A stretch of DNA of 63,951 nucleotides, filler included, from Circinaria calcarea (taxonomy: Eukaryota): NCBI GenBank assembly GCA_051942165.1. It is 4 parts of 4 records of this genome, joined end to end, with 100 filler letters (N's around TTAATTAATTAA, not from the genome) between each part and the next. Parts side by side here need not be neighbours in the genome. Positions count along the whole stretch, not along the records: positions 33,465 to 50,068 come from JAVECS010000312.1; 3 more parts are not named here. The stretch is one strand, 5' to 3'. The translations under genes were made by a program, and so were the position numbers. Below, piece after piece: positions 23,967 through 44,132 of this stretch (position 1 is the first letter of the stretch; each line of letters begins with the position of its first letter). Below the pieces are notes generated by a model that was not told the DNA's origin, did no database searches, and saw nothing but the letters and a program-made list of their open reading frames with translations.

Positions 23967-24886
23967 ATGTCGAGTGAGTTGGTTCTCGTGGGAATGCTTG
24001 ATTGCAAAGACTAATCCTCGACAACCTAGGTGCTTTACCCGACTATTGTACGCAACTTTCTTTCACGGCGTAAACCCAATCAATCCTAATCAAGCCCAAG
24101 ATGCCATTCTCGAGATCTCTTCTACTGCAACACCACAACAAGTTCGTGACGCTTATAAGAAGTCAGTTGCCCTCCCTTTGATTTCTCCTCCAGATTTTTA
24201 ATTGACCAACTAACCCGCCAATTAGACAAGCGTTAAAATCCCACCCCGATCGTGTAGCCTCTGACTCCCCCGAACGCCCTGCCCGTACCAAGAAATTCCA
24301 GAAAATAAACGATGCCTACTATACACTCTCGGACCCTTCCCGCCGCCGCGAATACGATGCCGCTCGCTCCTATTATGGCTACCAATCCTCCACCAACAAC
24401 GGTGATGACGACCCAGCCGAAGAGATTCCCCGGCCCAATCCCTCTTCGACCACTGGCGGAGGCTTCCCTTGGTCCGCCTTTGGTTTTGGCACCAAAAATA
24501 CCGCCGAGGAAGAACATTTCAGTAACGAGCAGTTCGGTGGGGTCTTTGAGGAGATGTTAAGGGATGAAGGTATGGCGGAAGGGGCAGAGGCGAAACCGAC
24601 AACGAAGTTCTGGAGTTTGCTGGGGGGACTGAGTGGTGGGGCTATGGGATTTATCGTTGCGAATTTTCCTGGGGCGTTGGCAGGTGCAGTAGCTGGCAAT
24701 CGGCTGGGGGCCGTGAGGGATGCGAGGGGGAAGAGTGTGTATAGTGTCTTTCAAGTGAGTCGTTCTGATATCCTTTAGGGGACTTAATCACTAACATTCC
24801 TTGCCCAGGAACTGCCCCAAGGAGATAAGGCAAAGTTATTAAGTGAGCTTGCAGCGAAGGTATTTGCCCATGCTGTAGGCTCATAG
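23967..24886 (+). CDS. Small class-C J-domain (DnaJ) protein with Gly-zipper-like hydrophobic C-terminal region
   Basis: Spliced MSSALPDYYAILEISSTATPQQVRDAYKKQALKSHPDR...KFQKINDAYYTLSDPSRRREYD, with C-terminal GGLSGGAMGFIVANFPGALAGAVAGNRLG. Confidence 0.9.
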
Positions 24887-25488
24887 GGTTGCAGGATGGA
24901 TATTTTGCTATTTTGAGGCGTTGCGGGTACTTGTGAGCGTTCTAGAGTTTCCAGCTGGGTTCCAAACTTCTGTCGATTTTCATCGTGTTGGTAATTTTCC
25001 TTCCAAGCTGCACCTCAAATTCGAATAAGGTCACATATCCAGTCATGAGTATGGGTCGACTATTCCCACGGTGCGCAGACTCTTACCAAGTGATTCTTTT
25101 CCCCTTCTATCCATTTGTTAGTCTGTTCTACCCGTCACCGGATTACTACTACCCAAAGTGGATTTATCACATTATGTCTGCCCACCTGCCCGCTTAAGAC
25201 TTGGCTACAATGAGGCAAGACGTGAGAATCAAGAGAACATGTTAGAAAAAGGAGAGAGCTCTACAACTCCAAGTTCTCGTTATTACACCCGTAGCTGTTT
25301 ATAAACATCTGTTAATAACCCTTAGTCCAGATATATCTATTCTTAGATCCCATTGCATTCTCGATGAAGCCTTACCACATGAAGTCTAGTGTTGAGATTC
25401 CCCCACGTTTTGATCCAGTGACGTCGATTCATCTCAGAAATCACAGAGACATCACACCTCACGCCACGCAGAGTCCATTATTTCTGTC

Positions 25489-26797
25489 ATGGTTCTCTTC
25501 AGCACGATGAGGCCTATCGCTAGCGCGCTATGCGCTGTCTGGCTTCTTTTGAGCGCGGTATCGCACAGCCTCCCTACGAGCCAAATACCTATAGTGAACC
25601 TCGACGTCTCGAAACCCATTAATCGCACCGTCTCTAATAGACTATTCCACGAACTCGAAGAACTTGCCCGCATTGTGGATATATCTTACTGTGTGGGTAC
25701 TACGGGAATAATGAAACCCTTTATGTGCGCCAGCCGATGTCAGGACTTTCCAGATTTCGAGTTGGTCACGGTAAGCAGCGGTGAAGGGGGTCTTGCTACT
25801 TTCTTAAACTGACAGAGTTTCCTAGACTTGGAATACCGGGCCGCTACTTGCAGATTCTTGCGGGTACATCGTTATTTCTCATCCTCCCTCTCCTCCACGC
25901 ATCATCGTAGCCTTTCGTGGAACGTACTCCGTTGCCAACACCATCATAGATTTGTCGACCGTACCCCAGGAGTATGTTCCGTACCCAGGAGAAAGCAGAA
26001 CCGAAAGTGTTCATGGTTCATTCGTCGATTCCATTTTGCACCCACTCAAGAACGTCAAGCGCACACTCGATCCGGAACTGGCAGAGTGCGTCGACTGCAC
26101 CGTTCATGCCGGCTTCATGCTCTCGTGGAGACACACGCGGGCTGAAATACTCCCCTATCTGGAAAAGGTCATCCAGCAATATCCAGATTATCAGCTGACG
26201 TTAGTGGGACATTCCCTTGGCGGGGCCATCGCTGCACTTGCGTCATTAGACTTCAAAGCACGCGGTTGGAATCCCAAGGTGACGACCTTTGGGGAACCAA
26301 GGATTGGCAACAAAGGATTGATGAAATATTTCGACAAGGCATTCCTTAAAGATGACGATATAGAGGAGAACGACATGTATAGACGCGTAACCCATGTCGA
26401 TGATCCCGTCCCGCTACTGCCGCTGAGGGAATGGGGATATAGAATGCATGCAGGAGAAGTCTATATTTCGAAAGCCGCGCTTTCACCTGCGGTCACCGAT
26501 CTGCAACATTGTGAAGGAGGAGAAGATCCACTGTGCATTGCTGGGGCGGATCCAGTTGCCAGGGCTACTGCCAACAACGAGACAGAAAGTTGGTTGGTAT
26601 ATGCAAATATGACGGAATTATGGAACGATGGCAAGACTGTACTGGCCATACCAGCCCGATTCCAGATATGGCAGCTCTTTTTCGCCCACCGAGATTATTT
26701 CTGGAGACTGGGTCTTTGTATTCCTGGCGGTGATCCATCAGATTGGTCTAGGAAATATCCTGACCTAGTCCAGGAGGAAAGAGTCACCATGATCTAA
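25489..26797 (+). CDS. Secreted class-3 (Lipase_3) triacylglycerol lipase
   Basis: Signal peptide, VDISYC, AFRGTYS, VHAGF, nucleophile motif GHSLGG, TFGEPRIGN, HVDDPVPLLP and HRDYF. One intron 25771-25826. Confidence 0.93.
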
Positions 26798-26994
26798 TGA
26801 CGTGCGATTATACCTTGGGGCTCGTGGGTTTAGCGCTTGGTGTTGGTGGATCTGATGATTAATGGCCTCGGTTTGGATACTGGGGGCCTCCGATTGTAGT
26901 TGTTCATAGTATTCCTAACCAATTGTAGAACTCTAATCGCATAAACGATCAACTTCCTCCGTGTTGGTAATCCAGTATCATGGTTGGTTAATTG

Positions 26995-27336
26995 TCAACC
27001 CATGATGTTTCTGATTCCAGGAGCCGAGTAGATCTCCAATTGCCTCTGGCCTTTTCGAAGGAGATATTCTATAGCCGAAAAGTCTTTCTTGTCTAGCATG
27101 GCATTCTTTCTGAATTCATTCCTGCTACAATCAACCGATTGTCCGTAAGTTGCCAAAGCATTGGACTTACCTGGCGTAGCTTCTGAAATTCTCTTGCACA
27201 TCCTAGATTATACATGTGAGCAGTAGATATCACCCCTGCCGGAACCGAAGATCCCTACAGCTGGCTTCTTCCTCGAACCTCGTAAACATTTCCGATACAA
27301 CGACAAGACCTCTCTCTGCAACCCTGACAACCGCAT
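26995..27336 (-). CDS. SDH6: LYR-motif succinate dehydrogenase assembly factor 1 (SDHAF1/Sdh6)
   Basis: Three exons give MRLSGLQREVLSLYRKCLR...FRSYARNEFRKN..LDKKDFSAIEYLLRKGQRQLEIYSAPGI. Confidence 0.92.
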
Positions 27337-27808
27337 TGCTTTTTACAAATTATCTTGAATTATCCGCTTAATCTGTCGTAACAATTGAGCCTCAAGTGAT
27401 GACGGAGTAGGCACGTACTTAGCCCCGGGACCACCCCTCCCGCCGAGATCCTTAATCCGGGGGAAGCTTTGAGAGGATTTTCACATTTCCTTTTTCTAAC
27501 TCTCACCCCAATGCCTCTTATCGAGTGTCATCTTGGCTTTTTCTGATCTCCGGGGGCGACTACTTCTGACTCATGGATAGAATAACGAGTTTTAGTGCGG
27601 AGAAGGACTCGTGTTTCAGAAGATGATTGAGAGATTCAAAAACTGAAACATTGTTCTCCCCGTACCTGTCATTATCGTATCCCTGTTGATATGCGATTCT
27701 GGATTCTAAATCTTGAGGACTTTGGGGCCATCACCCCTCACAGCTTATATACGCTACTCTGATCTTCAACGCTCGTTTACAGACGCCTTTCCCCTATCAC
27801 CCGGCGCT

Positions 27809-30800
27809 ATGGCAGACGGTCAAAAGCCCGTTAGGCGGGGGATACTTCCCCGAACAAGATCAAATTTTATAACACGCACGGCCATCGATGCCACTTCCCA
27901 ACTTGATGGGCCCTCTCCTATGATGCCCCCTGCGCAAACAAAACTTCCGGAAAGGAAACCTCCAGAAAGGAACCTTCCACGGGATCGGTTGGAGGTCTCC
28001 GGTAACTCTTGTGAGCCTCGGAGCATTGCTTCTAGCCGCACGCCACGCCGTCAATCTCCCACCAGGAAGGCACTTAGTATTGATGACAGCAGCCATCCGC
28101 CATTGGTTGGAAGACGATCATCCAGCAGGAGGCGGAAGAATAGCCACATATTGGTAGGAGACTCGTCATTGACAGCCCAAATGCATGTCCCAGCAGACGC
28201 GAAAGACAAGGAAGATCAGTCCGCTGGCCCAAGGATTGGGGCGATGCCTCGGCCAGTTGGGGGACATGCTAAACTCGGTACCTTCTCAGGGGTGTTCGTA
28301 CCTACCAGGTACGTCGACAGTAGTTCATCTTCCTATACAAGTCTCTTACTCACACTGTATCAGCTTGAACGTACTTAGTATTCTTATGTTTCTGCGGTTC
28401 GGCTTCATCCTAGGTCAGAGTGGAGTTCTTGGAATGATGGGTATGTTGATTGCCTCGTACATCATCAATCTCGTAACTACATTGTCTATATCTGCAATCG
28501 CTACGAATGGCACCGTACGCGGTGGGGGCGCTTACTACCTCATATCTCGCTCTTTAGGCCCAGAATTTGGGGGATCCATTGGGGTTGTTTTCTATCTTGG
28601 GTCTCTCTTCAACACTAGTCTTAACTCCGTCGGTTTAATTGATTGCCTAAAGCAGAACTTCGGCAGCGTGTCAGGCGATTGGGCTCAGTGGTTACCCGAG
28701 GGCTATTGGTGGGAGTATCTCTGGGCTACGGTTGTCCTAATCATTTGTACTGGGATCTGTCTAGCTGGTAGTGGTATTTTTGCACGATGCAGCAATGGAC
28801 TACTTGCTATACTACTGGTGGCCACTTTCAGCATTCCATGTTCATCTTTTATTATAAGCCCTTTCAAAAAGCCTAGGACAGGCCTTGAGTACACCGGACT
28901 TAGTGCGCAGACGTTTAAGGAAAACTTTCTTCCTAAGTTTACCCAAGGAGCTGCTGGAAGTCAGCTGCCAGGAAAGGAGAACTTCCAAGATCTCTTTGGC
29001 ATTCTATTTCCTGCGACTGGAGGCATATTTGCGTGAGTGAATATTCTACTTTATACTTCTGCTATACTGACTTCTTCTCCGGCTAGAGGAGCGAGTATGT
29101 CGGGGGATCTGAAGCATCCTAGTAAAGCTATACCAAAGGGCACACTCGGCGGGCTAGTTTTGACCTTCTTCGCCTATGCAGTGGTTATCCTTGCCATGGC
29201 TGCTACCATTACTAGGGCTTCATTGTATAGAGACGTCAATGTCATCCAGGAAGTGAGTTTGCATCTATTCCATATGTCTGTACCAAGCTTACATTTTATT
29301 CTTTCTGTAGACGAATATCTCTGGTGTTCTCGTACTCCTTGGAGAATTTGCTACTAGCTTTTTCTCCTCGCTTATGGGGGTTATTGGATCCGCAAAACTA
29401 CTCCAAGCCCTTGCACGTGATAATCTCCTCCCAGGATTTTCAATCTTCGGTCAAGGGACGAAGGGCAATGACGAGCCAACGTACGCTATCCTTGTTACCT
29501 ATATCATTGCCCAGATCGCAATGCTGAGCAACATCAATCAACTTGCGTCTTTTGTTACCATGACATATTTAATGACATTTCTGGTGACCAATCTTGCTTG
29601 CTTCCTGTTAAAGATCAGTTCGGCTCCGAATTTCCGACCTTCTTTCCACTATTTCAACTGGTGGACTGCTGGATTTGGTACCCTCATCAGTGGAGCTAGC
29701 ATGTTTTTTGTTGACGGTGTCTATGCCACCGGATGCATATGCATTTTGATTGTCATCTTCCTAATCATACATTACACTTCCCCGCCAAAATCTTGGGGTG
29801 ATGTAAGTCAGAGTCTTATTTACCACCAGGTCCGCAAGTATCTACTCCGACTTCGACAGGAGCACGTTAAATTCTGGCGACCACAAATTTTGCTGTTCAT
29901 CAACGACCCCCGCAAACAATACAAGCTTATCCAGTTTTGTAATTCATTGAAGAAGGGTGCGTTATTCGTCCTTGGCCACGTTATTATCTCGGATGATTTT
30001 GGGGCTGCAGTTCCTGAAGCTAGGCGTCAACAGGCGGCCTGGACCAAATATATTGATTTTTCAAAAATCAAAGCTTTTGTGAATGTTGCCATTGCGCCGC
30101 AAATTCAATGGGGCACTCGAAATATTGTGCTTAGCGCGGGTCTGGGAGGTATGCGACCAAACATAGTCGTCATGGGCTTCTATAATCTTGATGAGTTTCG
30201 AAGAAGTCAGCCGTTGATCGACGTACCCTCTCCGCAGCAGTCTAAGGCCGGGAATAAGACGGCCTCTAACCAAAAATCAAGGAGGAAGGGTTACCGACGA
30301 AGTGCGAGTGATAAGTTACGTGGAACCCTTCCCACTGATATATGCAGAACGGAAGGGGGCTACAATCCCACGAACTATGTTACCATATTGGAGGATCTAT
30401 TACTAAGGCTTCAGATCAACGTTGCCGTTGCAAAGGGCTTTGAGAATCTCGAGTTTCCACATCCTAATGAGGAAAACACCAAAAAGTATATAGACTTATG
30501 GCCTATCCAGATGTCGGCCGAAATTGCTGGAGAGGGGGGGGAAGAAAAGCAAAACGTTCTTACAACGAACTTTGATACTTATACGTTGATCCTACAACTG
30601 GGCTGCATCTTGAACACTGTCGATACGTGGAAGAAGGTCTATAAAGTCCGATGTGCTGTGTTTGTAGAATGGGAATCAGAGGTCGCGGAAGAACGTGCTC
30701 GGGTAAAGACGTTGTTAGAGAACCTCAGGATCGAAGCCGAGGTCCTGGTCTTCTGGCTTGCATCGGGCGATGTCAAGAGCTATCAGATTATTGTCAACGG

Positions 30801-32043
30801 TAACTCCGCCACAGCCGACCCTAGTACGGAGCAGGATGTAAATGAAGTGCTCAGGGAAGAAGAATGGTGGCAAGAGGTGCAAAAGGTGCGCGGCAAGCGA
30901 GGAGGGGTCAGTGCTAGGGAAGCACTTGCAGATGTTCAGGGCTTGTTGGATGTTTCTCCAAGTTGGCCCAGTACATCATTTCGATCCAACCGGCAGGAAG
31001 CTAACATGGAAAGGTTCGAGGGCCTGAAAAAGATGCTTCGACAATCGGAGAAGCGACGCCATTCATCCAAGAATCTCGGCAACTTAGGTGTGCGATTAGG
31101 AATGACGACACATAGACTATCAGATCAGGTAGTGTTGCATCATGCAAGCCATGCCAGTGCAAGCGAAGGGTCAAGTACCGGAGACAGCGACGGGGATACC
31201 TTTGATAGCGATAGTGCAGACGAGTCTTCGAGTCGGGCCAGCGCAGCAAGCGAGAATGATGCAAAATCAACAGCGAGTAGATGGAAAGCTGACAGCGGCG
31301 ATGAAGAAGGCGATGAGTTCGAAGCCTTGGGGACTAAGCCGCCGCTTAAAGCAGCCAGGAGACGTAGCGACGGTGGTTCTGTCGAAGATTTGCCGCCAAG
31401 GAAGCTCGGTTCGAGCAGGTTTTTGCAAGAGCCGATCAATATTCCACGTCTCAAGGTCTCAACTGCCCCCTCCGTCGCCTCGTCCCTGGATCAAAAGACC
31501 ACACCCGAAATCACCCGACCGTCTACCTCCAGCCGGGAACCTCAACCATCCTCAAGTACGAGCAATAGCTTGCGTTCAGCAGCATCCAGGCCCCGTCCAA
31601 TGCGTCGCTCCTCCGCCGGTAAATTTTCTTCTCGACCAGTTCCTAACACTACAGTAGCGACGGAAGATGGTCCGGGCCCGTCAATCATGTTCACGGATCC
31701 CGACACCCCTGCACAAGTATCTTCCCCCTTCCCATCCACCAACAACCGCCGCTCCCACAAACCCGCTACGCCAGCCTCGGGCTTCCCCTCTCCCCAAAGC
31801 ATCCCCCTCAGCTTCAACGATCTCCCCTGCCGAGCTCAGCATCTCATCCTCAACGAGCTGATGCAGCAGCACTCAGACGAGACGGCCGTAGTCTTCACGA
31901 CGCTGCCGAGCCCGATCGAGGGAACGTGCTTAAAGGAAGAGGATAGCGTGAGCTATCTGAGCGATTTGGAGGTGCTGTGTCAGGGTCTACCGCCGGTGCT
32001 GCTCGTCCACAGCAATAGTATGACTGTTACGATGAATCTCTAG
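27809..32043 (+). CDS. VHC1: Vacuolar cation-chloride cotransporter (SLC12 family, Vhc1-like)
   Basis: [67 protein letters not shown] and C-terminal [13 protein letters not shown]. Confidence 0.93.
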
Positions 32044-32479
32044 GTCTGTCTGTGGTGCCGCCTGGGTATTTTCTTGGGGCATAGACTTTGGGGGTTTTTT
32101 CAAAGACGGGCGTAGGGGAACCATTTTTGCATGAGCGGTTCTAATGTATACAAGGGACGAAAAGCATGCTAGACAGGGAGAACTCCAGCTTGTGTGTTGA
32201 CAATAGTACAGTCTAGGTTTTTCTCTATTTTGTCCCCAAAAACTAAAGCTGGCTGGCTAATAGATAAGCAAAAAAATTTTCTCGAAATTTCACCGCGCAA
32301 GCTGCCATTTGATCTCTATCTATAATCTATCGGTTTGATCTACAATCACAGACCGACTCGCATCAACTAAACTATCAAACCAGTTATTCCCCCCTTAACA
32401 AGTCTAGCTAAGTAAAGTAAGGTCTCCTCACTCGCCCAAAGGCGAGATTCATTCATGCATGATATGGATGGGAAAACAA

Positions 32480-32890
32480 CATTTATACTATTTTTTTTTG
32501 ACGCAAAGCGTACCATACATACGCTTCCCCACAGTTAAGTTTTTTTTTTAAAAAAAAAAAATACTGCCCTTCCCCAACCCACCTCACCTCATCTCATCTC
32601 ATCTCATCCAATGGTCCCGATCAAGTATGAAAAAAGGTTTTTTTTACCGCGCGAACAGGAAAATGAAGAAAAGTAAGCATTGTGTGGAGGATTGCGAGAG
32701 AAGTGATAAAGGAAGGAGAAGGGGGGGGGGGAATGAGGTTTGGGGGAAACGGTGATATTAGACGACTAATTTTCTCATCCATCTAATCCTAATCCCGTTC
32801 TATGATTTGGCCCTTTTTTTCCTCGCTCGGGTCGCAGAAATTGGGGGTATACAGTAGTTGATGCTTAAAAAAAATCTCTAAATGGGGGCG
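32480..32890. repeat. Low-complexity intergenic tract: T10A12 run (32540-32561), (CTCAT)4 (32588-32607), poly-G (~32721-32731)
   Basis: Directly visible homopolymers and a microsatellite between the convergent VHC1 and AVT stop codons. Confidence 0.85.
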
Positions 32891-33028
32891 GGGGTTCTCC
32901 CACAACCCCATAACATTCTAATCAAGGATGAACGAGGGGTATACAGGTACAGGCCGTCAATGAGCCCCGAAATTCTTTTCAGGTTGCCCATAAGACACAT
33001 TCTATCAATATCTGCCAAAAAAAAGTTC

Positions 33029-33364
33029 TCACTCGTCGCAGTATCCGGGGACTTTGGGATCTGATGCGCGCGCCCAGATGGCGATGGTCAGCGAGGTGGT
33101 GTAGATCATGACCAGGGCACCGAAGACGCAAAGAGACATGTCGACGATCCGTTGCCATTGAGCCCGCGCAACCGCTCTGTAGTGAAGGAGAGGCTTTGAA
33201 TTCTTGATTAGTCAAGTCCGAGGGCTTTCGGGGTTCAAGGCGCGGGACTTACGGGATAAATGTAGACGAGGGGCACGCAAGCAAAGCTACCGACAAGTGC
33301 CACGAATTTGTCGAGATCTCCGGCTCCACCCCAAGCCACGGCCGAGCAGACAATGACCAGGAAG
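33029..33364 (-). CDS. C-terminal fragment of a vacuolar amino-acid transporter (Aa_trans, Avt3/Avt4-like); 5' part lost at contig end
   Basis: Not in the ORF track. Translation FLVIVCSAVAWGGAGDLDKFVALVGSFACVPLVYIYP | GTAAGT intron | PLLHYRAVARAQWQRIVDMSLCVFGALVMIYTTSLTIAIWARASDPKVPGYCDE*. Confidence 0.88.
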
Positions 33365-33464
33365 NNNNNNNNNNNNNNNNNNNNNNNNNNNNNNNNNNNN
33401 NNNNNNNNTTAATTAATTAANNNNNNNNNNNNNNNNNNNNNNNNNNNNNNNNNNNNNNNNNNNN
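33365..33464. other. Artificial contig linker
   Basis: N44-TTAATTAATTAA-N44. Confidence 0.99.
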
Positions 33465-33850
33465 ACTCCAAAAGTTCAACAATACCGTAAATATATTACC
33501 CCCCAAATTTTAATTATTAGGCCCAGGGGTTAAAACATAATTAAAATAACTAGGAATTAAATATTTAAAAATATTTAAAAATAGTATCCAAAAAGCCTAA
33601 AACAACGTGTTATTATTTTAAAAATAATATTTTTTTTCTTTATAAAACACACGAGTATTTAAATATCCCGTCCGCTTTATTATATATAAGTTTAAGATTA
33701 GTTAATTAATAATTAAATAAATAACCACCAGCGAATATTAGCTGTTATATATTTTAATTTTTTATATAAAATATACTTTTGAAATACTTGTACACGAATT
33801 CGAGTTTATTAGATATTATTAACGTTTTTCAGAGCAATATATTTTAGCCA
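33465..33850. mobile_element. AT-rich, TpA-rich degenerate repeat relic (probable RIP-mutated transposon edge)
   Basis: Abrupt very AT-rich block at a contig start, dense in TA/TTA/TAA and with no ORF. Element family not recognisable. Confidence 0.6.
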
Positions 33851-34159
33851 ATGCCCTCGCTAAGCTCAACTACGTTTTCATATTGTTTCCCTTGATGCTG
33901 AAATAGACAATTGAAGATCCACTAGCTAATTAATTATGTCAATCAATATAAGAAATTGCAAATCGCATTTTTCATGGAAAATCTAATAAGATTCGTTGCT
34001 ACGTCTCCAGAGTCCAGAGCAGCAACTATCTCAGTTACTTCTTTACATTAGGCCTTTACGACCCCTATTCGGCTAGCTCGATGTTGATAAGTCTGGAATA
34101 AAGCTAAGAACAAAGCGTTGTGAGAAATGTTTGATATGGCAGGCCACATCCCTATGGAT

Positions 34160-35348
34160 CTACCCGGCCAGCTGGCGTAAGACGTCCGCAAACCCATCAC
34201 AAAATCCACCCAACTCCTTGTCGGACAAAATAAACGGCAGCTTGATAAATGGGCCATAACCCTTCTCCAGTAACAGTGTCCGACCTGCCTTAATGATTGC
34301 TTCGCCACCAGTCAGCATCTCTTTCGCGATGGCTGACGCGCTCGCCTTTGTGCCGCCAAAGCGATTGTGGTAGAATCGATTAAACAGGGACTGGTAGACA
34401 CCGCGGGGCTGCAAATTCAGAGCAATTTCGTCAACAATCGACCAGCCGGGCTTCTTGATCGTCCGTAGATTCATCGCAATGTTGTAGCAATCGGCGTCTT
34501 CGATCATGTCCCGGAGCTTAAAGGTACCCTTGTCAAGAGCCTTGGCCAGCGAGTCCTGACAGTACTGGTATCCCGAGTCGACGTCGGAATCCCGCCAATC
34601 ACCGTAGAACGTTATCCAGTCTCCTCCCCAACCCACCACGTCGGCTCGGCTGATTTCGTGACCGGTAGCGACTAGCTTATCGCCTTTGAGGTAGACACCG
34701 TTCATGCAGGCACCGAGGTGGGCGGCATGTACCTGAACATTGAATTGGGCATCTGGAAATGTGGATACCTCCCACGTCAAACCTTTGCCTTTAGCGTAGG
34801 AGATCCAGTCATCGTCGACATTCCCAATGAGCTCTCCCCATTTGATGTCGTTGTAGTTAGGGTTCTCCTTTCGAAGCCATTCCATCACCAGCAAGTTAGG
34901 ATCTTTCCCGTGACCATATGACTTAGCAAGATCATATATCTTGCGGAAGTATGCGATGAATGCCTCTCTGGGAGTGTTAGGCATACAACACTGGACATCC
35001 TTATCACCCGGACAAAAACCTGGCTGGAAGGAACCGTTCGGGCAGCGGTTCTTCGATTTGTCACTGCATGTACCACTAAAGTTGTCCACTCCACAAGCCT
35101 GCTTGATGCAGCAACGGACGTTGGCAGGGTCATTCGGACATGCCTCCCCTACAGTGAAGCCTGATGTACTGCCGTCAGACCTGAAGAGAAGAACTTGAAA
35201 TAACAAAAACGGACGAACCATTGGAGCAGTTTTCCACCTTCTAGCAGGTACCTCTGCCTTGTGTGGCTCTGCAAGTATCACCGATGGCAGCATAGACACT
35301 GCTAACTAACAAAGAGAATAGCACAGAGTGATATAAGTGGGCAAGCAT
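34160..35348 (-). pseudogene. Secreted chimeric protein (signal peptide, 2 Cys-rich modules, ~265-aa bacterial-like domain) with one premature TAG
   Basis: ATG 35348 gives MLAHLYHSVLFSLLVSSVYA-AIGDTCRATQGRGTC*KVENCSNG. A 58-nt intron (35161-35218; GTTCGT...CTGAC...CAG) precedes an open 1001-nt exon 2. Confidence 0.75.
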
Positions 35349-36400
35349 TTTGAGTGTGTCTCTAGTCAGATGGTTCGTCAACGCAGTTTGAAAATGGAGG
35401 CGAGCGTGAAGAAGTCAGCAGCTTCCAGCAAGACCTTTAATATTCTCCTGACCCGGGAAAACAGAAATAGAACTGGCAAATCTGTGTTGAGGTAAGAACT
35501 GAGTCCGAACGGTGCGCTGGCAGAACACGGGCAGAAAGCCTCACCAAAATACGAGGGCCGGGCGCACATATCACAGTCACGTAAATAGAAAGTTATAAGA
35601 GAAATTAAACAACCAGGTATATCGAGTAACTGAAACAAAGCCACAATGCTAAGGGTCTAGACTCGCTTAGCTTCCCCGGATTTAGCCATCCCATCCCCAA
35701 TAATAGGGTATTCCGCCTCAATGCCAAGCTCTTTCTGCACAGCAAATGACCAAGGACAGCGGCAACCCGCGTTATATGTACGACATAGGGGTTGCTCGGT
35801 GGCACGAAAGCACTTGAACATATCTCTCAATTAGGTCGATTCGTACTCCGTAGCAGTTTTCGCGCCGCCTGCGCCTTGCTCGGTACCTGGCATTCCTATG
35901 TCCTCGAGAAATAGCCTGTTATTGTTGACCTTCCCATTAGTACCTGTCTTAGGATCTGCCTAGACAATCAATGCTATCGACTTCTGAAATCTTGGCTTTT
36001 TTAAGGGGACTTTCCACGAGGCACGCATGGCTATCTAGACTCTCGGCAATAAAGGATATTCCGTCGTGGACGACAGAGCTTCCTACATGGCTAATATAGG
36101 TAACTATGGGGAAGCAGGAATCGAATAAAACCTCCTGTTGCATGAGCCTCTCGTAGATAAGTCCGTACCTCAATATAGAGATGCTTCAAACGGTGAATTG
36201 AGTAGTTGGTGCTGTGAACAAAGTTAGGGGAGAAGTCAATTGCTGCACGTTAGAATAGCGGCTATTCCCAAGATCAGACAGGGGGGCTGCATGCTTATAA
36301 CCTCGGCTCCCCACACTTCCAAACGTTGAAGGACTCGAGAGAGTTCTTGAGGCTGGCCGTTATTCTGCTTCTTGCAACCTCTAATGACTTTAAGAGAAAT

Positions 36401-37721
36401 ATGGCAGGCGCTATAAGGCAGCCCATCGATACTAACTCATTATCAAAATACATTGGGGAGAATGTCCCTGAGATTCAGCTCCCAATAGGTATCAAGCAGG
36501 TTAACCCCCGCTCGAGATCCTTGAACACCGGCGCGAGTATAAGCTAACTCTCAGTCCCCAGTTTGGCTTTGGACAATCGAATCCTACATACCAACTCACT
36601 GCCGCCAACGGACACAGATATGTTATGCGCAAGAAGCCGCCGGGCAAATTGCTGTCGAAAACTGCACACCAAGTAGAGCGAGAATATCGGATCATCCATG
36701 CCTTGGAAAAGACCGATGTGCCTGTCCCCAAAGCGTATGCCTTGTGCGAAGATGTGCGGGTGGTCGGAACCCCATTCTACATCATGGAGTTTCTGGACGG
36801 GAGGATCTTCGAGGATGCTTCTTTCCCAGGGGTCTCACCGGAGGAAAGGAGGGAAATGTAGGTGCGAGCTCACGTACAAATCAGAGTTACGGTCACTTAT
36901 TGAAACAATACAGGTGGTATGATGCCATCCGCACACTCGCCAAACTCCATCGGGTAGACCCTCGCTCAGTCGGTTTGTCGGATTTTGGAAAGCCCTCCGG
37001 CTTCTACAACCGACAGTTGAAGACCCTAGGCATGATCTCAGAATCACAAGCCCAAGCGGTAGATATCGAGAGTAAATTGCCTGTGGGCAAGATACCACAC
37101 TTTGATGACATGGTGTCATTCTTCAAGGACCCCAACACACAGCCGCAGGATAGGGGAACGTTGATACACGGCGATTACAAGATCGACAATTTAGTGTACC
37201 ACAAAAGCGAACCGAAGGTCATTGGAATCTTAGAGTACGTATTGCGACCTCTCTCGCATGTTCCATCTCTCCCTCCCGGAAAAAAGCCTAACCAGCCCAG
37301 CTGGGAAATGTCCACAATCGGTCACCCCCTCTCCGACCTCTCCAACCTCCTTACCCCGTTCACCTTCTCCCTCTCCCTCTCCGGCCCATCCCTTACTTCC
37401 CAAATCCACAACCGCATCAACCCCGCCTTCTCCTCTGCCAACACCCCCGGTCTCCCATCCCGATCGCAGTGCATAGCCTGGTACGCCGAGACCGCCGGCT
37501 GGGACCCTAGCGCCGAGAGTCTGTGGGGAGATGCATTTGGGGTGTTCAAGAACAGTGTGATTATGCAGGGGATTGCGGCGAGGTATGCGCTCCGGCAGGC
37601 GAGCAGTGCGAAGGCGAGAGAGTATGGCGAGCAGATGAGGCCTTTTGGGGAATTTGCGGCGGGGTTGGTAAAAGCGTTGACGCAGCGGGGTCAAGGGGGT
37701 GGAGAGAAGGCGAAATTGTGA
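36401..37721 (+). CDS. Aminoglycoside-phosphotransferase (APH)-family kinase, ACAD10/ACAD11 kinase-domain-like, peroxisomal
   Basis: [60 protein letters not shown] and C-terminal PTS1 -AKL. Three introns. Confidence 0.92.
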
Positions 37722-38458
37722 TGAGAGGCGGTTCTTCGCGGATAGGCTGTCTTGTGTTCTGCCACGGCTACTACTCGTGTGCCGGGACATTTAGAGCTTT
37801 CACGACCGAAGAATCTCCTCCACAAACCCCGAAGTCCCCGACACGGTCCAGTCATCCCTTTGCAAACGTACTTTCCAAGTCCCTGTAAATCTGGAGAGAA
37901 GTCTATCCAATAGTCTGCTGAAACCGAATTGACAAAAATCGGCTACGCTTGGTTGGACTCAGTGATGAGTTTGAGGATGTTTGGTTCTCTAATACTACGT
38001 ATTTTTCACAGTTTTCATCAGAACAACACCTCGAATATCATGAGGCTGAATGGTGAGAGCATGCTTTTACCATCTCCATCCACACATGTTCCGCCAAGTC
38101 AAGCCGGTGAAATGGAGGTACAATGAAGAAGGAACCGGGAAGGGAGAGGATATACCCAGAGGCTGATGTAGATTGCAGAAATCTATTGGCAGATAGATGC
38201 CCTGGAGTGGAGGTGACATGAGTGTGCTACCACCGTACAGAGCTGTAGTCTGGCTATTGTGATTGAATATACAAAACATATGCTTTGTTGCTTCCCTCCC
38301 CGGCTCTGTAGAACCTCAGTTCCTGATTTGTGGCGTTAAGGAGCAAATTCTTTCCCAACTTTACGGGGCCTCGGCCTCGGACGGTGGTTTGATATTGTCT
38401 TGTAGTAGCTTGTCCCGAGGCCACAACGGCACAAGGAACAGTATCTTCCGGGACATGG

Positions 38459-41400
38459 TTATTTAGAAGAGCGGCCGAGGGTCTTCTGAACCTGCTGAGC
38501 GACGTCTATGACGGATTCGGGTATGCCTGGAGGGACGGATAAGCGACGAGAAACGATGACTTGGAAATACCATGGGCTTACCTGCGAGTCGCGCAACCTT
38601 CAGGGCGTGTGACTGTCTATTAACTCCCGGTTTGAGGCGGTGAACGTAGGAAAAGGCACCAGAAGGTGTGTCTACGACATCGGTACAGTAACAGCCCAAT
38701 TCATCCCATTCGCTCGTCATATCGGCTAGGACATGGAAATGCGTGGCGAACAAGGTTCTACATCGATTGGTATGGTAGAGATGATGGAGACAGGCAAACC
38801 CGACCGCAATGCCGTCTTCCGGAGTGGTTCCCCTACCTACTTCGTCCATGATGACAAACGATCGAGGTGTAGCGGTTTTGAGGATACTGGCAGTCTCCAG
38901 CATTTCCACCATAAAGGTAGACTGGTCTTCGAAGAGGCTGTCCGCCGATCCGACCCTGCTGAAGATTTGGTCCACAATCCCAATCTCTGCATGCTCTGCC
39001 GGTACAAAAGACCCGATTTGCGCCAGGATTGAAATCAGAGCGTTTTGCCTTAAAAAGGTACTTTTCCCTGCCATATTCGGTCCGGTGATGAGCCAAATGC
39101 GCTGCTTGTCCCCGACAAGACAGTCATTGCTAATAAAGGTTCTGCCTTGTTCATCGAGTCCAAGCTTTACAGTCGGATGCCTTCCCCCAATGACCTTGTG
39201 ACTTGTTCCAATATTCAAGCTGGGCCGAACAAAGCCTTGTTCCACTGCGACGGCTGCTAGTGAGCAGGCAACGTCGAGTTCGTCGAGTACTGCAGCATTG
39301 CGGCGCAATTTGACTAAATTGGCCACTACTTGCTCACGCAGCTCCTGAAAGACGCACTGCTCTTCTGCGCGAATGCGCACTTTCATCTGGTCAATCTGTC
39401 CTCCAAGGCTTGACCATTCGGGTAGATAAAGTGATCGGGTTGATTTAGTAGAGCTAGCGTTTCGTGCTGTAGCAAGAGTACTCGTCGATGTGCGAACATC
39501 CTTTACACCTCTCACATGGCATATGTGTCCCAAACCCGGAGTCCATCGCAACGTCAAGCTTGTGACTCCAGATCGTTGTCTAAGGTCGGCCGTCAATAAG
39601 CTCTTCGTATCAAAGAGTACCCGCAAGCTCTCATGCAATCTCTTTAAGGTTGGACTTGCGGTTCGGCACATAATCCAGACATCTGCATCATCTAGGCTTT
39701 GCTCCGTCAATGTTCTCGGAGTCGGTTTAGAGCGAGTAATCTGAGAGAACGCTTCCAAATCATCCGCAGCACCCTCACTTTGCAGGATCCCCTGAGCCAT
39801 AGAAACGAGTTTTGCACTTTCATTCTCCTCTTCACGTTGTCTAGCATCCAAACCATCTTCATCAATGGTGTTCTGGATTCGTGCCGCTAATAAGCCAGGG
39901 CCGTCTAGGGCTAGTTGTTTGAACGCTTGTCCCAAAGCGTGACAAATGTTTGAGCTTTCATTTTCAAAGGGGGCTCGGGCTATATTTTGCTTTAGGACCT
40001 CTGCAATGCTCTGTGTGGCAACAATCGTCCGAAGTAGGCTGATTAAATCATCGGCATCACCTCTACCAAGAGAAAACTTTTGTACGAGACGCTGGGAATC
40101 ATGCGTCCTGCGAAGTAGATTTACGATGTCCGCTCGGAGGTCCACGTTCTGAGTAAAACACTCAACAAGGTCCAATCTCTGATTGATAACCGCAAGGGAT
40201 GTCGACGGTGAAGCTATCCACAACAAACAGTATATGTTAGCTAGATGGGTAGCATTTGATTGTATACTGCGCAAGATCTTCGACAGCATATCCCCAAGGC
40301 ACAAGTGGGTAAGAACACGTACATATCCATTCCCGCAACAGTCGGGTTCCACTTTTAGTTACAGTTCTTCTTACTGCATGGAGTAAGCTACCCTTACCGC
40401 CCGAGAGGCCATCTCTGGACGTCTCGAGAACTTCAAGGCCACGCATACTGTGCCTATCTATCATCATACTTTCGTTAATGAGTCTTCTTATCGGTGCTTG
40501 TAATTTAATGCCAAAACCCTGAAGCTTGTCCGTGACGTATCCGAGTAGCATACTGCCTGCTACCACCTCTTGATTCGTGAACATACGTTGTTCCGAATCG
40601 GGGATTGGGGTTTCAAGCATATGTGACCATTCCGATACATTCTTATGGCTTGGCATATTTGACTGCCAGGTGACGAGATTACTGTAATGCCCGAGAACAG
40701 CCGTAACACTCTGCTTTAGACAATCACTCATCGCATTGTCCATTATGATCTCTCTGGCTCCAATCCGTACTAAACTGGTAGGAAGGGCGCTGATTGTAGT
40801 AGATTGAGTATAGAACTCGCCAGCGGATAGGTCTAGCCATGCCAGCCCTGCTGGCTGATCTTTAAGCCTTAATAAGACGGCTTCCCGAAGTGCTAAACTG
40901 CTTATCGCAATAGCCTCTCTGGGCACTTCGTGGTCAATGTCTTGCACGAATATCGCGAGTAGAAAGTTATTCGAACAAGGATCGATAAACTTCTCATCTA
41001 CCAATGTCCCCGGAGTAACAACTCTTGTGACTTTTCGACTGAACAGTAAACCTCCGGACTTGACTTTGCTACTAGCATTGTTCGAGAACTCTTCACTGAT
41101 TGCAACGTACTTGTTTAGATCCTGCACAAGGATCTTCAGGAAGCGGTCAAGTTGGAAGAAAGGGAAGCCGGCCTAGCAGAACGTAAACAAACGCTCTCCG
41201 TATGGTCCTAGCAGTTCTGGATACCATTGACACCGGACCGGCTGTAGTCTTCTTCTGAGCAACCTTGAGATTGAGCAAAGGTCCATACTCCTCGGCGTGT
41301 TCAAGATACAGCTGTAAAGCAGTTAGCTAGGTCGTATACGACCTGCTCTCTACTCCACAAACCTCATAGAAGCCTCCAACCCTGGTCAAAAGTACACAGT

Positions 41401-41719
41401 TGTCGAACTTTCGCATATTGTTCCTAGCCTCCTGTACCACGGTCGGATATGCTGGGCCATCGTCTGAGGTACTGCTGGGTTTCGACTCTGCTCTGAGTAC
41501 CCCCTGAGGAAGTTCATCAAGCAACACTGTTGCTTTGGATTTCACGCCTCGCCTTTGTACGGGAAAGCCTCTTGGGATGAGGTGCAATAGTGATCGGTAG
41601 CTGTGGGACGCGGAACATTGGCCAATTTGACCTATACAGATTCTAAGGCCTCTCAAAGGACTTTTTGGAAGACTGAAGTAACGGAAATGGGATAATCTCA
41701 CGGTGGTCCCATGCAGCAT
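38459..41719 (-). CDS. MSH1: Mitochondrial MutS homologue Msh1
   Basis: Arg/Ser-rich presequence, LLTRVGGFYE, MAGFPFFQLDRFLK, RVVTPGTL, Walker A TGPNMAGKSTFLRQ, STFMVEMLET, DEVGRGTT, ATHFH and SHALKVARLAGIP. Confidence 0.95.
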
Positions 41720-42433
41720 ACTGAATGCTGCAGGAATTTGAAAAGCGAGAGGCGCGCATTCTCAGCCCTATTCTACTAAATCTGCCGCACTATTCTTAGT
41801 TTAGTGGATCCTCATCTCATGCCATAGAACTGCTTGAGCTTTTGTTGCTATGTCACAGATAATTTAGGGATGCAGATCCCACCAACCGACAGTAGCATCA
41901 CTTCAAACTGACTGACATGTTTGGTAGAGATACGCAGAACCGAGAACATCTTTGACTACGGTGCTATCTTCAGAGAGTCTTTGGTCGCCGACAAGGACAC
42001 AAACTGCCCCAAAGAAGTGGAAAGACCGGATTTGAAATCTAAACTGTCTTCATCCATCTATTGCCCCTTAGCGCCACGCGTCAGAAGACGGACATAACAT
42101 TCATGCTGCGCCAACAACAAAGGTTGAAAGCAAAGCTACCGAAAATAGCCCACCAGCCAAAGAGAATCTGAAGTGCCATACAATTGTCCCAGCAAGTAAC
42201 AATGCAAGCTATCTGCAGCTTCTCCAAACGTGACTGGCGCTAGCCAGAACCATGCAAAGTTCGTTAAAAGCGTGACAAAGGGGATGACAGCATCGCACAA
42301 AAGGTTGATGGGGACCACAAAGCTTTGGCCGAGGCAAGATCTGTTTGCTCGACAATCGAGCTGACAGGAAGGTCGTAACCAGCTGCACGGACGCAGATCA
42401 ATTCATCCACATCAACTTCAATGAGCCCTTCCT

Positions 42434-44132
42434 TTATTGAGAGGCACATTGCATTCTTTCACCGCCTGCCGGAATCCCGTCCTCCTCCTCGTCCTCCATC
42501 GTCGCTCCTGCCCGACGTTGTCCGCTGTGATCCACGTTTTCAAGGTAATCTACGTTGGTGATTATAGTTCCGGGGGGTAGCTGAGGCGGAGGAGCTGTTT
42601 GCGATACGGGCAGAGGTTCGAAAGGAATGCGGTCCTCTGGTAGTACTGGTAGCTTTTGTCGCTGCGGAGGCGGAGGCAGATCTGTATCCATTCGCCCTTG
42701 TGCCAGTGCCTTCTCATGCTCGGTTTGCAGCTTCTTATACTCGGCTTCTAGCTTCTTATACTCGGCTTCGAGCTTCCGTATCTCCGGCGCTCTCGAAGCT
42801 AAGATTGGTTCCTTATACAAGAGCTCGCTTTGCAGTCTCTCTACCTCATCTTCCGGACTCTCTTGTTCAATTAATCCGTTTGTTTGACCAAGGACATGCA
42901 TCAAAGACTGAACGTGCCCCTGATCAAGTGAATTCAACCGGGAAGGATACTTGACATCAAATTGGATGTAGAGATTGCCTTTGAATTTTGGATCTCTCAT
43001 CATTGGCATACCCTCGCCTCGGAGCATCTTAACAGTACCTACAATAATTAGCAAGGACCTGAGAGCATACTAATGCACTTGACTTGCCTGGCGTAATAAC
43101 TTCTCCTGAGTCTAGACTTATGTGCAACCACCGCATGGGTATCTCTGGACTGCGATCCAGGCATTCAATCCACAAGTCGCCGCCTACCAATGCAGTGAAA
43201 AGATTGATCTCGGCTTGATAGAAGAGATCGTCACCCTTCCTCTGGAACCGGGGATGTGGTTTTTGCTCGATTTCAAATTGAACATCGCCAGGCTGGATAC
43301 CCGGTGCCTGATCTCCTTCGCCGCGGAAATCAATCTTGTATCCACTCGGTACGCCTTTCTCCACATTCACATACAGAACTTTTCTCTCGACGATAGTCTT
43401 CTTGCCTTTGCATTTGCGACATTTATCTTTCTCGCGAACAATCTCACCTTCTCCTTGGCAATCCGGACAGACGGTTTGGAAGCGCTGAATTACTGGTCCC
43501 ATCTTTCGCATTATGGTCTTCATGCCGGCTCCTTGACATCCACTACATGTCTTAACGGCGCCTACTTTCCCTCCGCGTCCATCGCAATCAGGGCAGATGA
43601 CGGATTTTTGAAGCGCGAGCTTCGATTCTTTCCCGTTGTAGATATCTTCAAGGCTCACTTTGTGGACATGGTGAATTGTTCTAGCTTTCTTGGGCCCAGT
43701 CTCACGCATGCCTCCACCAAACATGCTGCCGAGCCCACCTCCACCGAAGAATTGTGAGAAGAGGTCCTCTGCGTTCATGCCACCTGCGCCACCCTGCTCG
43801 GAGAGACCTGCTTCGCCATATTGATCATATGCAGCGCGTTTCTGTGGATCTGACAATACTTCGTATGCCTTGGAAATGTCTTTGAATGTGTCTGCAGCGC
43901 CTGGGTTGTCACGATTCTTGTCTAAAGCAGTTTGTTAGCTACGCCGGACAAGAATATTACTAGAACTATACCTGGATGATACTTCAGGGCTCCTTTCTTG
44001 TATGCAGTTTTAAGCTGAGCTTCTGAGGCATCGGGCGGCACCTATTCATTCCAGTAATCAGCAACCGCTTATCCTGTTCGGAAGAGCGCATCCTACCCCA
44101 AGGAGGTCGTAGAACTTTGATTCCTTGACCAT
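42434..44132 (-). CDS. YDJ1: Type-I Hsp40 co-chaperone Ydj1/Mas5 with an unusual C-terminal insertion
   Basis: MVKESKFYDLLGV, HPD split by an intron, G/F region, four CxxCxGxG-type zinc motifs, PGDVQFEIEQKPHPRF, GEGMP and CaaX box CASQ. Confidence 0.95.
42710..42772 (-). repeat. 3 x 21-bp in-frame tandem repeat (LEAEYKK LEAEYKK LQTEHEK heptads)
   Basis: Plus-strand units cttctcatgctcggtttgcag / cttcttatactcggcttctag / cttcttatactcggcttcgag. Confidence 0.9.

Follow-up and report, generated by a model that had tools for sequence, protein, structure and literature searches.

A TelC-like domain joined to six-cysteine modules in a probably inactivated gene of Circinaria calcarea

The stretch of Circinaria calcarea DNA analysed here (63,951 nucleotides, four joined parts of assembly GCA_051942165.1; hereafter the window) contains on its minus strand, at 34160..35348, a two-exon gene that joins a predicted signal peptide and two six-cysteine modules to a C-terminal domain of the TelC type. 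On balance we favour the reading that this locus specifies a fungal (Lecanoromycete-type) secreted protein, whose bacterial-derived TelC domain would belong to an antibacterial, lipid II-cleaving family, and that the present copy is probably inactivated. TelC of Streptococcus intermedius (PDB 5UKH) is a lipid II phosphatase that depends on calcium and that leaves the cell by type VII (Esx) export. Its fold was new, built of helical lobes with one hairpin and an active site rich in aspartate, and the enzyme works only outside the cytoplasm and does no harm to yeast (Whitney et al. 2017, PMC5555719, the methods of which include a peptidoglycan hydrolase assay of TelC). The classification followed here is that of Burroughs, Nicastro and Aravind (eLife 2025, PMC12419801). 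The features of the gene are far beyond chance. An earlier interpretation, made by a sequence-only reading, largely holds; the family turns out to have a name, and TelC has made its enzymology known.

The TelC-like domain and its active-site residues

The domain is assigned through its homologues to Pfam PF27189 (YkzU) and corresponds to the prok-TelC family of the Lipocone superfamily, in which TelC has been placed (PMC12419801). PF27189 is carried by all 12 of the close homologues considered (36-89% identity; precomputed annotation), and the matching protein atlas clusters are named YkzU/PF27189 (mostly bacterial, score 0.91). The Pfam entry itself (Pfam 38.1, 'YkzU uncharacterised protein') gives no function, and most of its members are stand-alone bacterial proteins of about 260 residues. 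When the whole reading frame was scanned locally against Pfam and NCBIfam, no family emerged, the local Pfam-A release being one without the PF27189 model; the sole row of these scans, a NAD kinase match at E 0.29, was discarded as noise. A search of 1.84 billion representatives with a profile of the domain returned 817 proteins at E<=1e-3, 415 at E<=1e-10 and 108 at E<=1e-30. The published Prok-TelC table (Prok-TelC.tsv, supplement of PMC12419801) includes sequences that bear the same motifs (LVME..R / H..A..NG / GWGGD..T.Y..W / LIEDAD), and no fungal-type strings were found in that table. The domain had been put forward as a possible undescribed family; PF27189 and the same-motif sequences tabulated by Burroughs et al. 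2025 remove that option. The parts of the domain discussed below are as follows (minus strand throughout; domain numbering).

34163..34984 (-): TelC-like Lipocone domain (Pfam PF27189 YkzU), 274 residues, intronless
34718..34720 (-): invariant histidine H89, in helix 87-103, aligned with a TelC histidine
34595..34642 (-): motif D115...GWGGD122...W130, in helix 113-132 (putative H3); its AGWxGD aligns with TelC
34481..34510 (-): aspartate-rich motif D159-x3-D163-x-D165-x2-N168, in helix 157-175 (putative H4)
34385..34387 (-): CTG (Leu) at domain position 200, an arginine in 39 of 42 family members
34361..34363 (-): invariant arginine R208, on helix 196-209 of the helical C-terminal extension

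An AlphaFold model of the domain, built from 13 sequences, is confident (pLDDT 90.2, pTM 0.89) and is helical throughout save for one beta-hairpin. When the model was scanned against 48,161 chains, TelC (5ukh_A) was the only one to reach Z>=5, at Z 9.6 with a root-mean-square deviation of 4.9 over 202 aligned residues that span the whole model; the next-best chain was at Z 4.4. The same chain ranked first when a 42-sequence profile was compared with PDB, a marginal match (E 0.051, 16.3 bits) whose alignment consists of three colinear segments, namely YN..W, His...AGWxGD and DxxxDxDxxNI...R. A profile of 10 fungal sequences gave chance rows only against PDB, TelC not among them.

Conservation was counted over the 42-sequence alignment of the domain, in which H89, D122 and R208 are invariant (42/42), D115 is kept in 41 sequences, and D159 and D165 in 39 each, both being present in the window copy. 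The histidine and aspartate residues that the sequence-only reading had nominated as catalytic candidates are invariant positions of the family. In the four-helix core, helices 29-39, 87-103, 113-132 and 157-175 bear LVMEWLR, H89, D115/D122 and D159, respectively, and the conserved histidine (H2), acidic residue (H3) and aspartate (H4) of the Lipocone core are all present. The four motifs singled out earlier are found in the domain (LVMEWLR, HLGACMNG, DVVGWGGDWITFYGDWR and TFKLRDMIEDADCYNIA) and, judged from their order and from the Prok-TelC core sequences of PMC12419801, would be the core helices H1-H4; H89 would be the active-site histidine of H2. The TelC family is further marked by an aspartate six positions after the H4 aspartate, which is contacted by an arginine of a C-terminal helix (PMC12419801, section 12). 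D159 and D165 have this spacing, and the aspartate-rich motif as a whole aligns with the DxxxDxDxxNI of TelC. Helix 196-209 carries two candidates for the contacting arginine, neither of which is singled out: R208 is kept, and the R200 column, which aligns with a TelC arginine, is arginine in 39 of 42 sequences and leucine in the window.

The likeness to TelC extends over the fold (Z 9.6; mostly helical with a single beta-hairpin), over the colinear histidine, AGWxGD, DxxxDxDxxNI and arginine of the marginal profile alignment, and over a predicted site of action outside the cytoplasm. The two differ in sequence (about 15% identity) and by an insertion of about 80-100 residues between the first two aligned segments. 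They differ also in delivery: TelC has an LXG domain, travels between bacteria through a type VII secretion system and is paired with an immunity protein, whereas the fungal protein has a predicted eukaryotic signal peptide and cysteine modules.

Gene structure, cysteine modules and the state of the copy

The spliced coding sequence comprises 376 codons with a single internal stop, and its parts lie as follows, all on the minus strand.

34160..35348 (-): entire gene from start to stop codon; its two exons splice to 376 codons
35348-35346 (-): start codon ATG
35348-35219 (-): exon 1
35289..35348 (-): predicted signal peptide, codons 1-20; the conserved xIGD with which module 1 starts comes next
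35108..35285 (-): six-cysteine module 1, residues 22-61, ending CPNDPANVRCC; split by the intron and containing the TAG
35241..35243 (-): in-frame TAG, codon 36, inside module 1
35218-35161 (-): predicted intron, 58 nucleotides, phase 1, with GTTCGT donor, CTGAC branch-like site and CAG acceptor
35160-34163 (-): exon 2
34985..35107 (-): six-cysteine module 2, residues 62-102, ending CPGDKDVQCC
34162-34160 (-): stop codon

The CTGAC lies 15 nucleotides before the CAG acceptor. Removal of the 58-nucleotide intron restores the frame and yields the junction ...C-x-x-GFTV..., as in the intact proteins of Xanthoria, Seirophora, Cryomyces and others, and the contig of a 93%-identical metagenomic relative aligned across the intron without gaps. 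A second 58-nucleotide intron, starting at GTACCT and ending in ...CAAG, was considered and dropped, since it is the GTTCGT...CAG intron that gives the junction of the homologues. The signal peptide was judged by eye as a hydrophobic leader, and this leader and the IGD start are common to 24 homologues. The 12 cysteines of the two modules are residues 26, 35, 41, 51, 60 and 61, and 66, 75, 83, 93, 101 and 102. The signal peptide, both modules, the four motifs and the intronless domain described by the sequence-only reading were all recovered at their expected positions. Public gene models of the family often lack the signal-peptide exon: those of P0001, P0002, P0170, P0171, P0183, P0024 and P0210 either begin within the conserved intron or translate it, with starts just ahead of GFTV, for instance, or with residues inserted between the third cysteine and GFTV.

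The module follows the pattern C-x-C-x-C-x-CP-x-CC and stands N-terminally, after the signal peptide, in one to three copies in secreted fungal enzymes; here there are two. Columns C7, C16, C17, C22, C31, C49 and C57 of the module alignment are invariant. A profile made from this alignment matched 45 longer proteins, of which 31 carry PF27189, four NlpC/P60, two cutinase and one VanY, with seven without a family; the partner domains were confirmed in 14 proteins scanned. The wider matches are owed to the alignment, as a search with the single 58-residue module found P0001 only. Modules of this kind had been put forward as appendages of NlpC/P60, amidase and lysozyme enzymes. Among the 45 matches the association with peptidoglycan-active enzymes is borne out for NlpC/P60 and extends to VanY, with no amidase or lysozyme fusion seen, and it reaches beyond such enzymes to the cutinases. 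The module matches no Pfam or Atlas family, and its model (pLDDT 70, about 80 over module 2) gave no fold match, the best being at Z 2.1. Since it is present in both fungal TelC subgroups, that of the window and that of Teloschistales, the fusion of module and TelC domain predates their split. That it is paired repeatedly with enzymes of bacterial wall turnover or attack suggests a part in targeting or in stabilisation, and the modules probably stabilise the enzyme or direct it to bacterial envelopes. One further protein, P0192 (1244 residues, ENA), matches the module profile at E 3.7e-69, has no Pfam family and apparently consists of many module repeats.

Two changes mark the window copy. The stop that had been implied by a proposed repair of Gln36 is indeed there, as TAG at 35243-35241 (codon 36), in a column occupied among 24 homologues by lysine (18), glutamine (3), serine (2) or arginine (1). 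The leucine at domain position 200 is at the only highly conserved column where the copy departs from the family, and the 93%-identical metagenomic relative has CGG (Arg) at that codon, the second base differing. Because these two changes occur together, a stop at codon 36 and a leucine in place of a near-invariant arginine, the copy was probably inactivated recently, as an allele or pseudogene that is probably non-functional. Of the differences listed from the 93% relative, 33 of 40 fall at third codon positions, which argues that the frame was under purifying selection until recently.

The same third-position bias, together with an otherwise open 376-codon frame and the retention of every invariant catalytic-type residue, also speaks for the strongest competing explanation, in which family and function are as we propose and the copy is intact in vivo, the TAG being a sequencing or assembly error, a strain polymorphism or a codon bypassed by splicing. 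A weak-looking GT at 35251-35250 (G|GTACCT) would, with the normal acceptor, define a 91-nucleotide in-frame intron (35161-35251) whose removal takes out the TAG and two cysteines of module 1. Donors of fungal introns usually have G at +5, which this cryptic donor lacks, and the leucine at the near-invariant arginine column is a second unusual change specific to the copy. We regard an intact copy as a possible but less likely state of affairs, and recent inactivation as somewhat more likely than error or bypass.

Fungal distribution, bacterial relatives and ancestry

The named fungal members found are all from Pezizomycotina and are scattered over at least six classes, with many lichen-forming genera, above all of Teloschistales, among them; lineages were checked for six species, and the remaining species are placed by their usual classification. 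Lecanoromycetes are represented by Lignoscripta (84% identical to the domain of the window), Puttea, Psora, Protoblastenia, Letrouitia and some fifteen genera of Teloschistales, Dothideomycetes by Alternaria atra and Cryomyces, Eurotiomycetes by Cladophialophora and Penicillium canescens, Leotiomycetes by Tricladium and Geoglossomycetes by Geoglossum; Xylariales are present also.

Outside fungi, the nearest relatives are actinobacterial. A scan of contigs from one genome per prokaryote species gave 98 relatives, with Actinomycetota accounting for 79 of the best 80; the closest is from Actinacidiphila (45% identity over residues 2-274). The sole non-actinobacterial locus among the best 80, L080, sits on a 1523-bp contig of a Caballeronia metagenome-assembled genome and may be mis-binned. 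Among 51 long relatives scanned, the Rv2525c-like domain PF08924 lies directly upstream in 29, of which 19 have PG_binding_1 as well; 21 have no Pfam family and one a weak immunoglobulin-like row. We take PF08924 to be the former DUF1906. The resemblance seen by the sequence-only reading, to the unnamed tail of actinobacterial peptidoglycan-binding/DUF1906 proteins, was therefore well founded, and locus L001 has the same layout.

The architecture PG_binding_1, Rv2525c-like (PF08924) and TelC, as in Streptomyces xiamenensis P0030 and Actinacidiphila yanglinensis L001, has been described (PMC12419801, section 31), and such proteins are reported there to lie in bacterial operons with rapidly evolving partners. 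Their C-terminal domain is 32-45% identical to the fungal one over its full length, has the same invariant residues and is the closest non-fungal domain in the trees. The proteins differ in being about 750-900 residues long, in carrying wall-binding and TIM-barrel domains instead of cysteine modules, and in having no intron. A metagenomic protein, P0156 (709 residues), has an Rhs repeat-associated core at residues 68-148 (E 2.9e-21) upstream of a TelC-like domain at 447-648, which is a layout of the polymorphic-toxin style.

In a FastTree analysis of 202 rows, all seven of the then-named fungal rows fell in one group of 48 rows that includes no actinobacterial locus (SH-like support 98). A mixture-model analysis in IQ-TREE with 100 rows grouped the 49 rows of the fungal group with one long bacterial branch (SH-aLRT 93) and placed this group within an unresolved polytomy alongside actinobacterial clades. 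Constraining the 49 rows to stay together gave a better likelihood (+35.5; p-AU 0.915), so that their grouping is not rejected. The backbone is an unrooted polytomy that supports neither nesting within Actinomycetota nor a particular donor. The simplest reading of these patterns, not a proven one, is a single ancient gain from bacteria, and an actinobacterial ancestry of the domain appears most likely. The transfer that the sequence-only reading held possible is favoured by a patchy distribution, a coherent fungal group and the proximity of Actinomycetota, and not by nesting, rooting or donor. Several points count against this account of origin and against the wider proposal. Of the 49 rows called fungal, 13 carry a fungal name, and the group was drawn after the first tree; the backbone is, as said, a polytomy, in an unrooted tree; and the patterns used in the contig scan came from fungal sequences, which biases it to look-alike actinobacterial members and, being fungal-derived, leaves other phyla under-sampled.

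That the gene is itself bacterial, through contamination or a chimeric assembly, can be dismissed for practical purposes: Actinomycetota are the closest non-fungal relatives, yet the gene has a spliceosomal-type intron, shares its exon for signal peptide and module with named fungal proteins, lies on one contig between intron-bearing fungal housekeeping genes, has a GC of 52%, far from actinobacterial values, and has orthologues annotated in many fungal genomes. Its GC at third codon positions (GC3) is 60%, compared with 48-53% in two neighbouring genes. The intron, the fungal neighbours and the GC together favour long residence in a fungal genome. The flanking genes, in 24206-43934 of the window, are all intron-bearing and of unremarkable fungal type. 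They encode a DnaJ-domain protein, a class 3 lipase (Lipase_3), an SLC12 cation-chloride cotransporter, a phosphotransferase of the APH family, a MutS homologue divided among at least two frames and a chaperone of the DnaJ/Ydj1 type. The window contains no paralogue of the gene.

Other layouts exist among the relatives. A subclade of the fungal group (P0009, P0026, P0039, P0042, P0047 and P0062) has a cysteine-poor N-terminus of about 100 residues with no obvious signal peptide, and in P0051 and P0052 (812-854 residues) the TelC-like domain is C-terminal to a long region without a Pfam or NCBIfam family; both may be intracellular versions. P0053 (Alternaria atra), P0095 and P0174, at 730-800 residues, have a long N-terminus and a cysteine-rich stretch before the domain, and one relative has a weak immunoglobulin-like match. 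The Cladophialophora-type proteins P0043, P0050 and P0073 have an extra cysteine-containing C-terminal domain of about 130-170 residues after the TelC-like domain.

Proposed function and significance

What has been found is a chimera of the secretion type, as the sequence-only reading had it, with fungal cysteine-rich modules joined to a domain that, outside fungi, is most closely related to bacterial ones. We propose that, where a family member is intact, its leader would send it into the secretory pathway and its disulfide-rich modules would stabilise it or target it. By homology to Streptococcus TelC, the TelC-like domain with its histidine/aspartate cluster, probably holding a divalent metal, would act as a metal-dependent phosphoesterase. 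At the outer surface of bacterial membranes it would hydrolyse the undecaprenyl-diphosphate linkage of lipid II, or that of a similar wall precursor linked to lipid. Bacterial wall synthesis would be starved as a result, and the fungal family would function as a diffusible antibacterial enzyme; no immunity protein would be needed, because fungi lack the lipid II substrate. The activity and chemistry of the fungal domain are predicted here from sequence and structure comparison.

Further points stand on the contrary side. The PF27189 label of the gene comes from the precomputed annotation of its homologues and not from a score of its own. The identity to TelC is about 15%, the profile match (E 0.051) is marginal alone, and D401, the aspartate of TelC that has been tested experimentally, could not be mapped onto the family. 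Foldseek against PDB missed TelC, giving nothing at E<=0.001, and re-examination of its top 1000 chains produced a best Z of 4.0; of the structural check advised beforehand, AlphaFold plus Foldseek, the Foldseek half thus failed, and the confident model with the 48,161-chain scan led to TelC. A freely secreted 40-kDa enzyme would have to pass through an intact wall to reach lipid II. As for the state of the copy, the TAG may stem from misassembly or reflect variation between strains.

An active Lipocone enzyme might also work on another lipid head group or in a role other than an antibacterial one, such as on fungal or algal membrane lipids, in symbiosis signalling or in conflict between fungi. 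Substrates vary across the superfamily and other lipids have been suggested as targets (Burroughs et al., PMC12419801), some fungal relatives are without a signal peptide and have different N-terminal regions, and the module is found also on cutinases, enzymes that do not act on bacteria. We consider such a role unlikely, given that the nearest bacterial relatives are tied to peptidoglycan-binding and Rv2525c-like wall domains and that NlpC/P60 and VanY enzymes have the module in common. Far less probable still is a new peptidoglycan hydrolase cutting the glycan or peptide of the mature wall, one of the options raised beforehand from the association with peptidoglycan-binding and peptidoglycan-active domains. 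TelC is the only fold match, that is, a lipid II phosphatase and not a glycosidase or peptidase, and the Pfam, NCBIfam and PDB profile scans gave no match to any glycosidase, amidase or peptidase family. TelC reportedly did not degrade the wall in a hydrolase assay.

The reuse of a bacterial toxin that we favour for the family has parallels among eukaryotes. The Dae amidases of ticks come from a gene for a toxin used between bacteria, which a eukaryote took over and whose product it secretes against bacteria; the concept is alike, the enzyme class and the host differ, and for the fungal protein the role is predicted. A second parallel is Met-TelC, an acquisition of TelC by animals that forms the N-terminal region of PGLYRP2 and other proteins (PMC12419801, section 35). 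It is likewise eukaryotic, secreted and bacteria-derived, and is joined to peptidoglycan-related modules. Met-TelC differs in that it is an independent lineage with a reconfigured, mostly inactive site (PMC12419801), whereas the fungal family keeps the histidine/aspartate set.

Both the domain family and its occurrence in fungi have been published before: fungal TelC domains are mentioned in PMC12419801, where such proteins are interpreted as antibacterial conflict systems. In the literature searched, nothing beyond that paper dealt with fungal TelC proteins, and no relevant paper was found for 'YkzU' or 'PF27189'. The fungal architecture of signal peptide, cysteine module and TelC domain and its spread in lichen fungi appear to be undescribed in this literature, although the architecture supplement of PMC12419801 may include the architecture. 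What is added here is this architecture, the other fusion partners of the module, the breadth of retention in lichen fungi and the state of the present copy, whose broken condition tempers the interest of the locus.

Few protein toxins are known that destroy lipid II, which vancomycin and many lantibiotics target, and TelC is one of them; many Teloschistales genera retain a TelC-type gene. Tentatively, and with the odds rather against so full a scenario, early Pezizomycotina may have taken up a TelC-type lipid II phosphatase from actinobacteria and joined it to a six-cysteine module peculiar to fungi, giving modular, secreted enzymatic 'antibiotics' against wall synthesis with which lichen fungi would police the bacteria of the thallus, the module being a new domain for targeting bacterial envelopes. 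If this is true, a freely secreted eukaryotic TelC would add a new class to the antibacterial proteins of fungi, and the family would be a clear case of fungi reusing a bacterial weapon, its module being a candidate for portable targeting. The family could also shed light on how lichens, and fungi that inhabit rock or soil, influence the bacteria associated with them.

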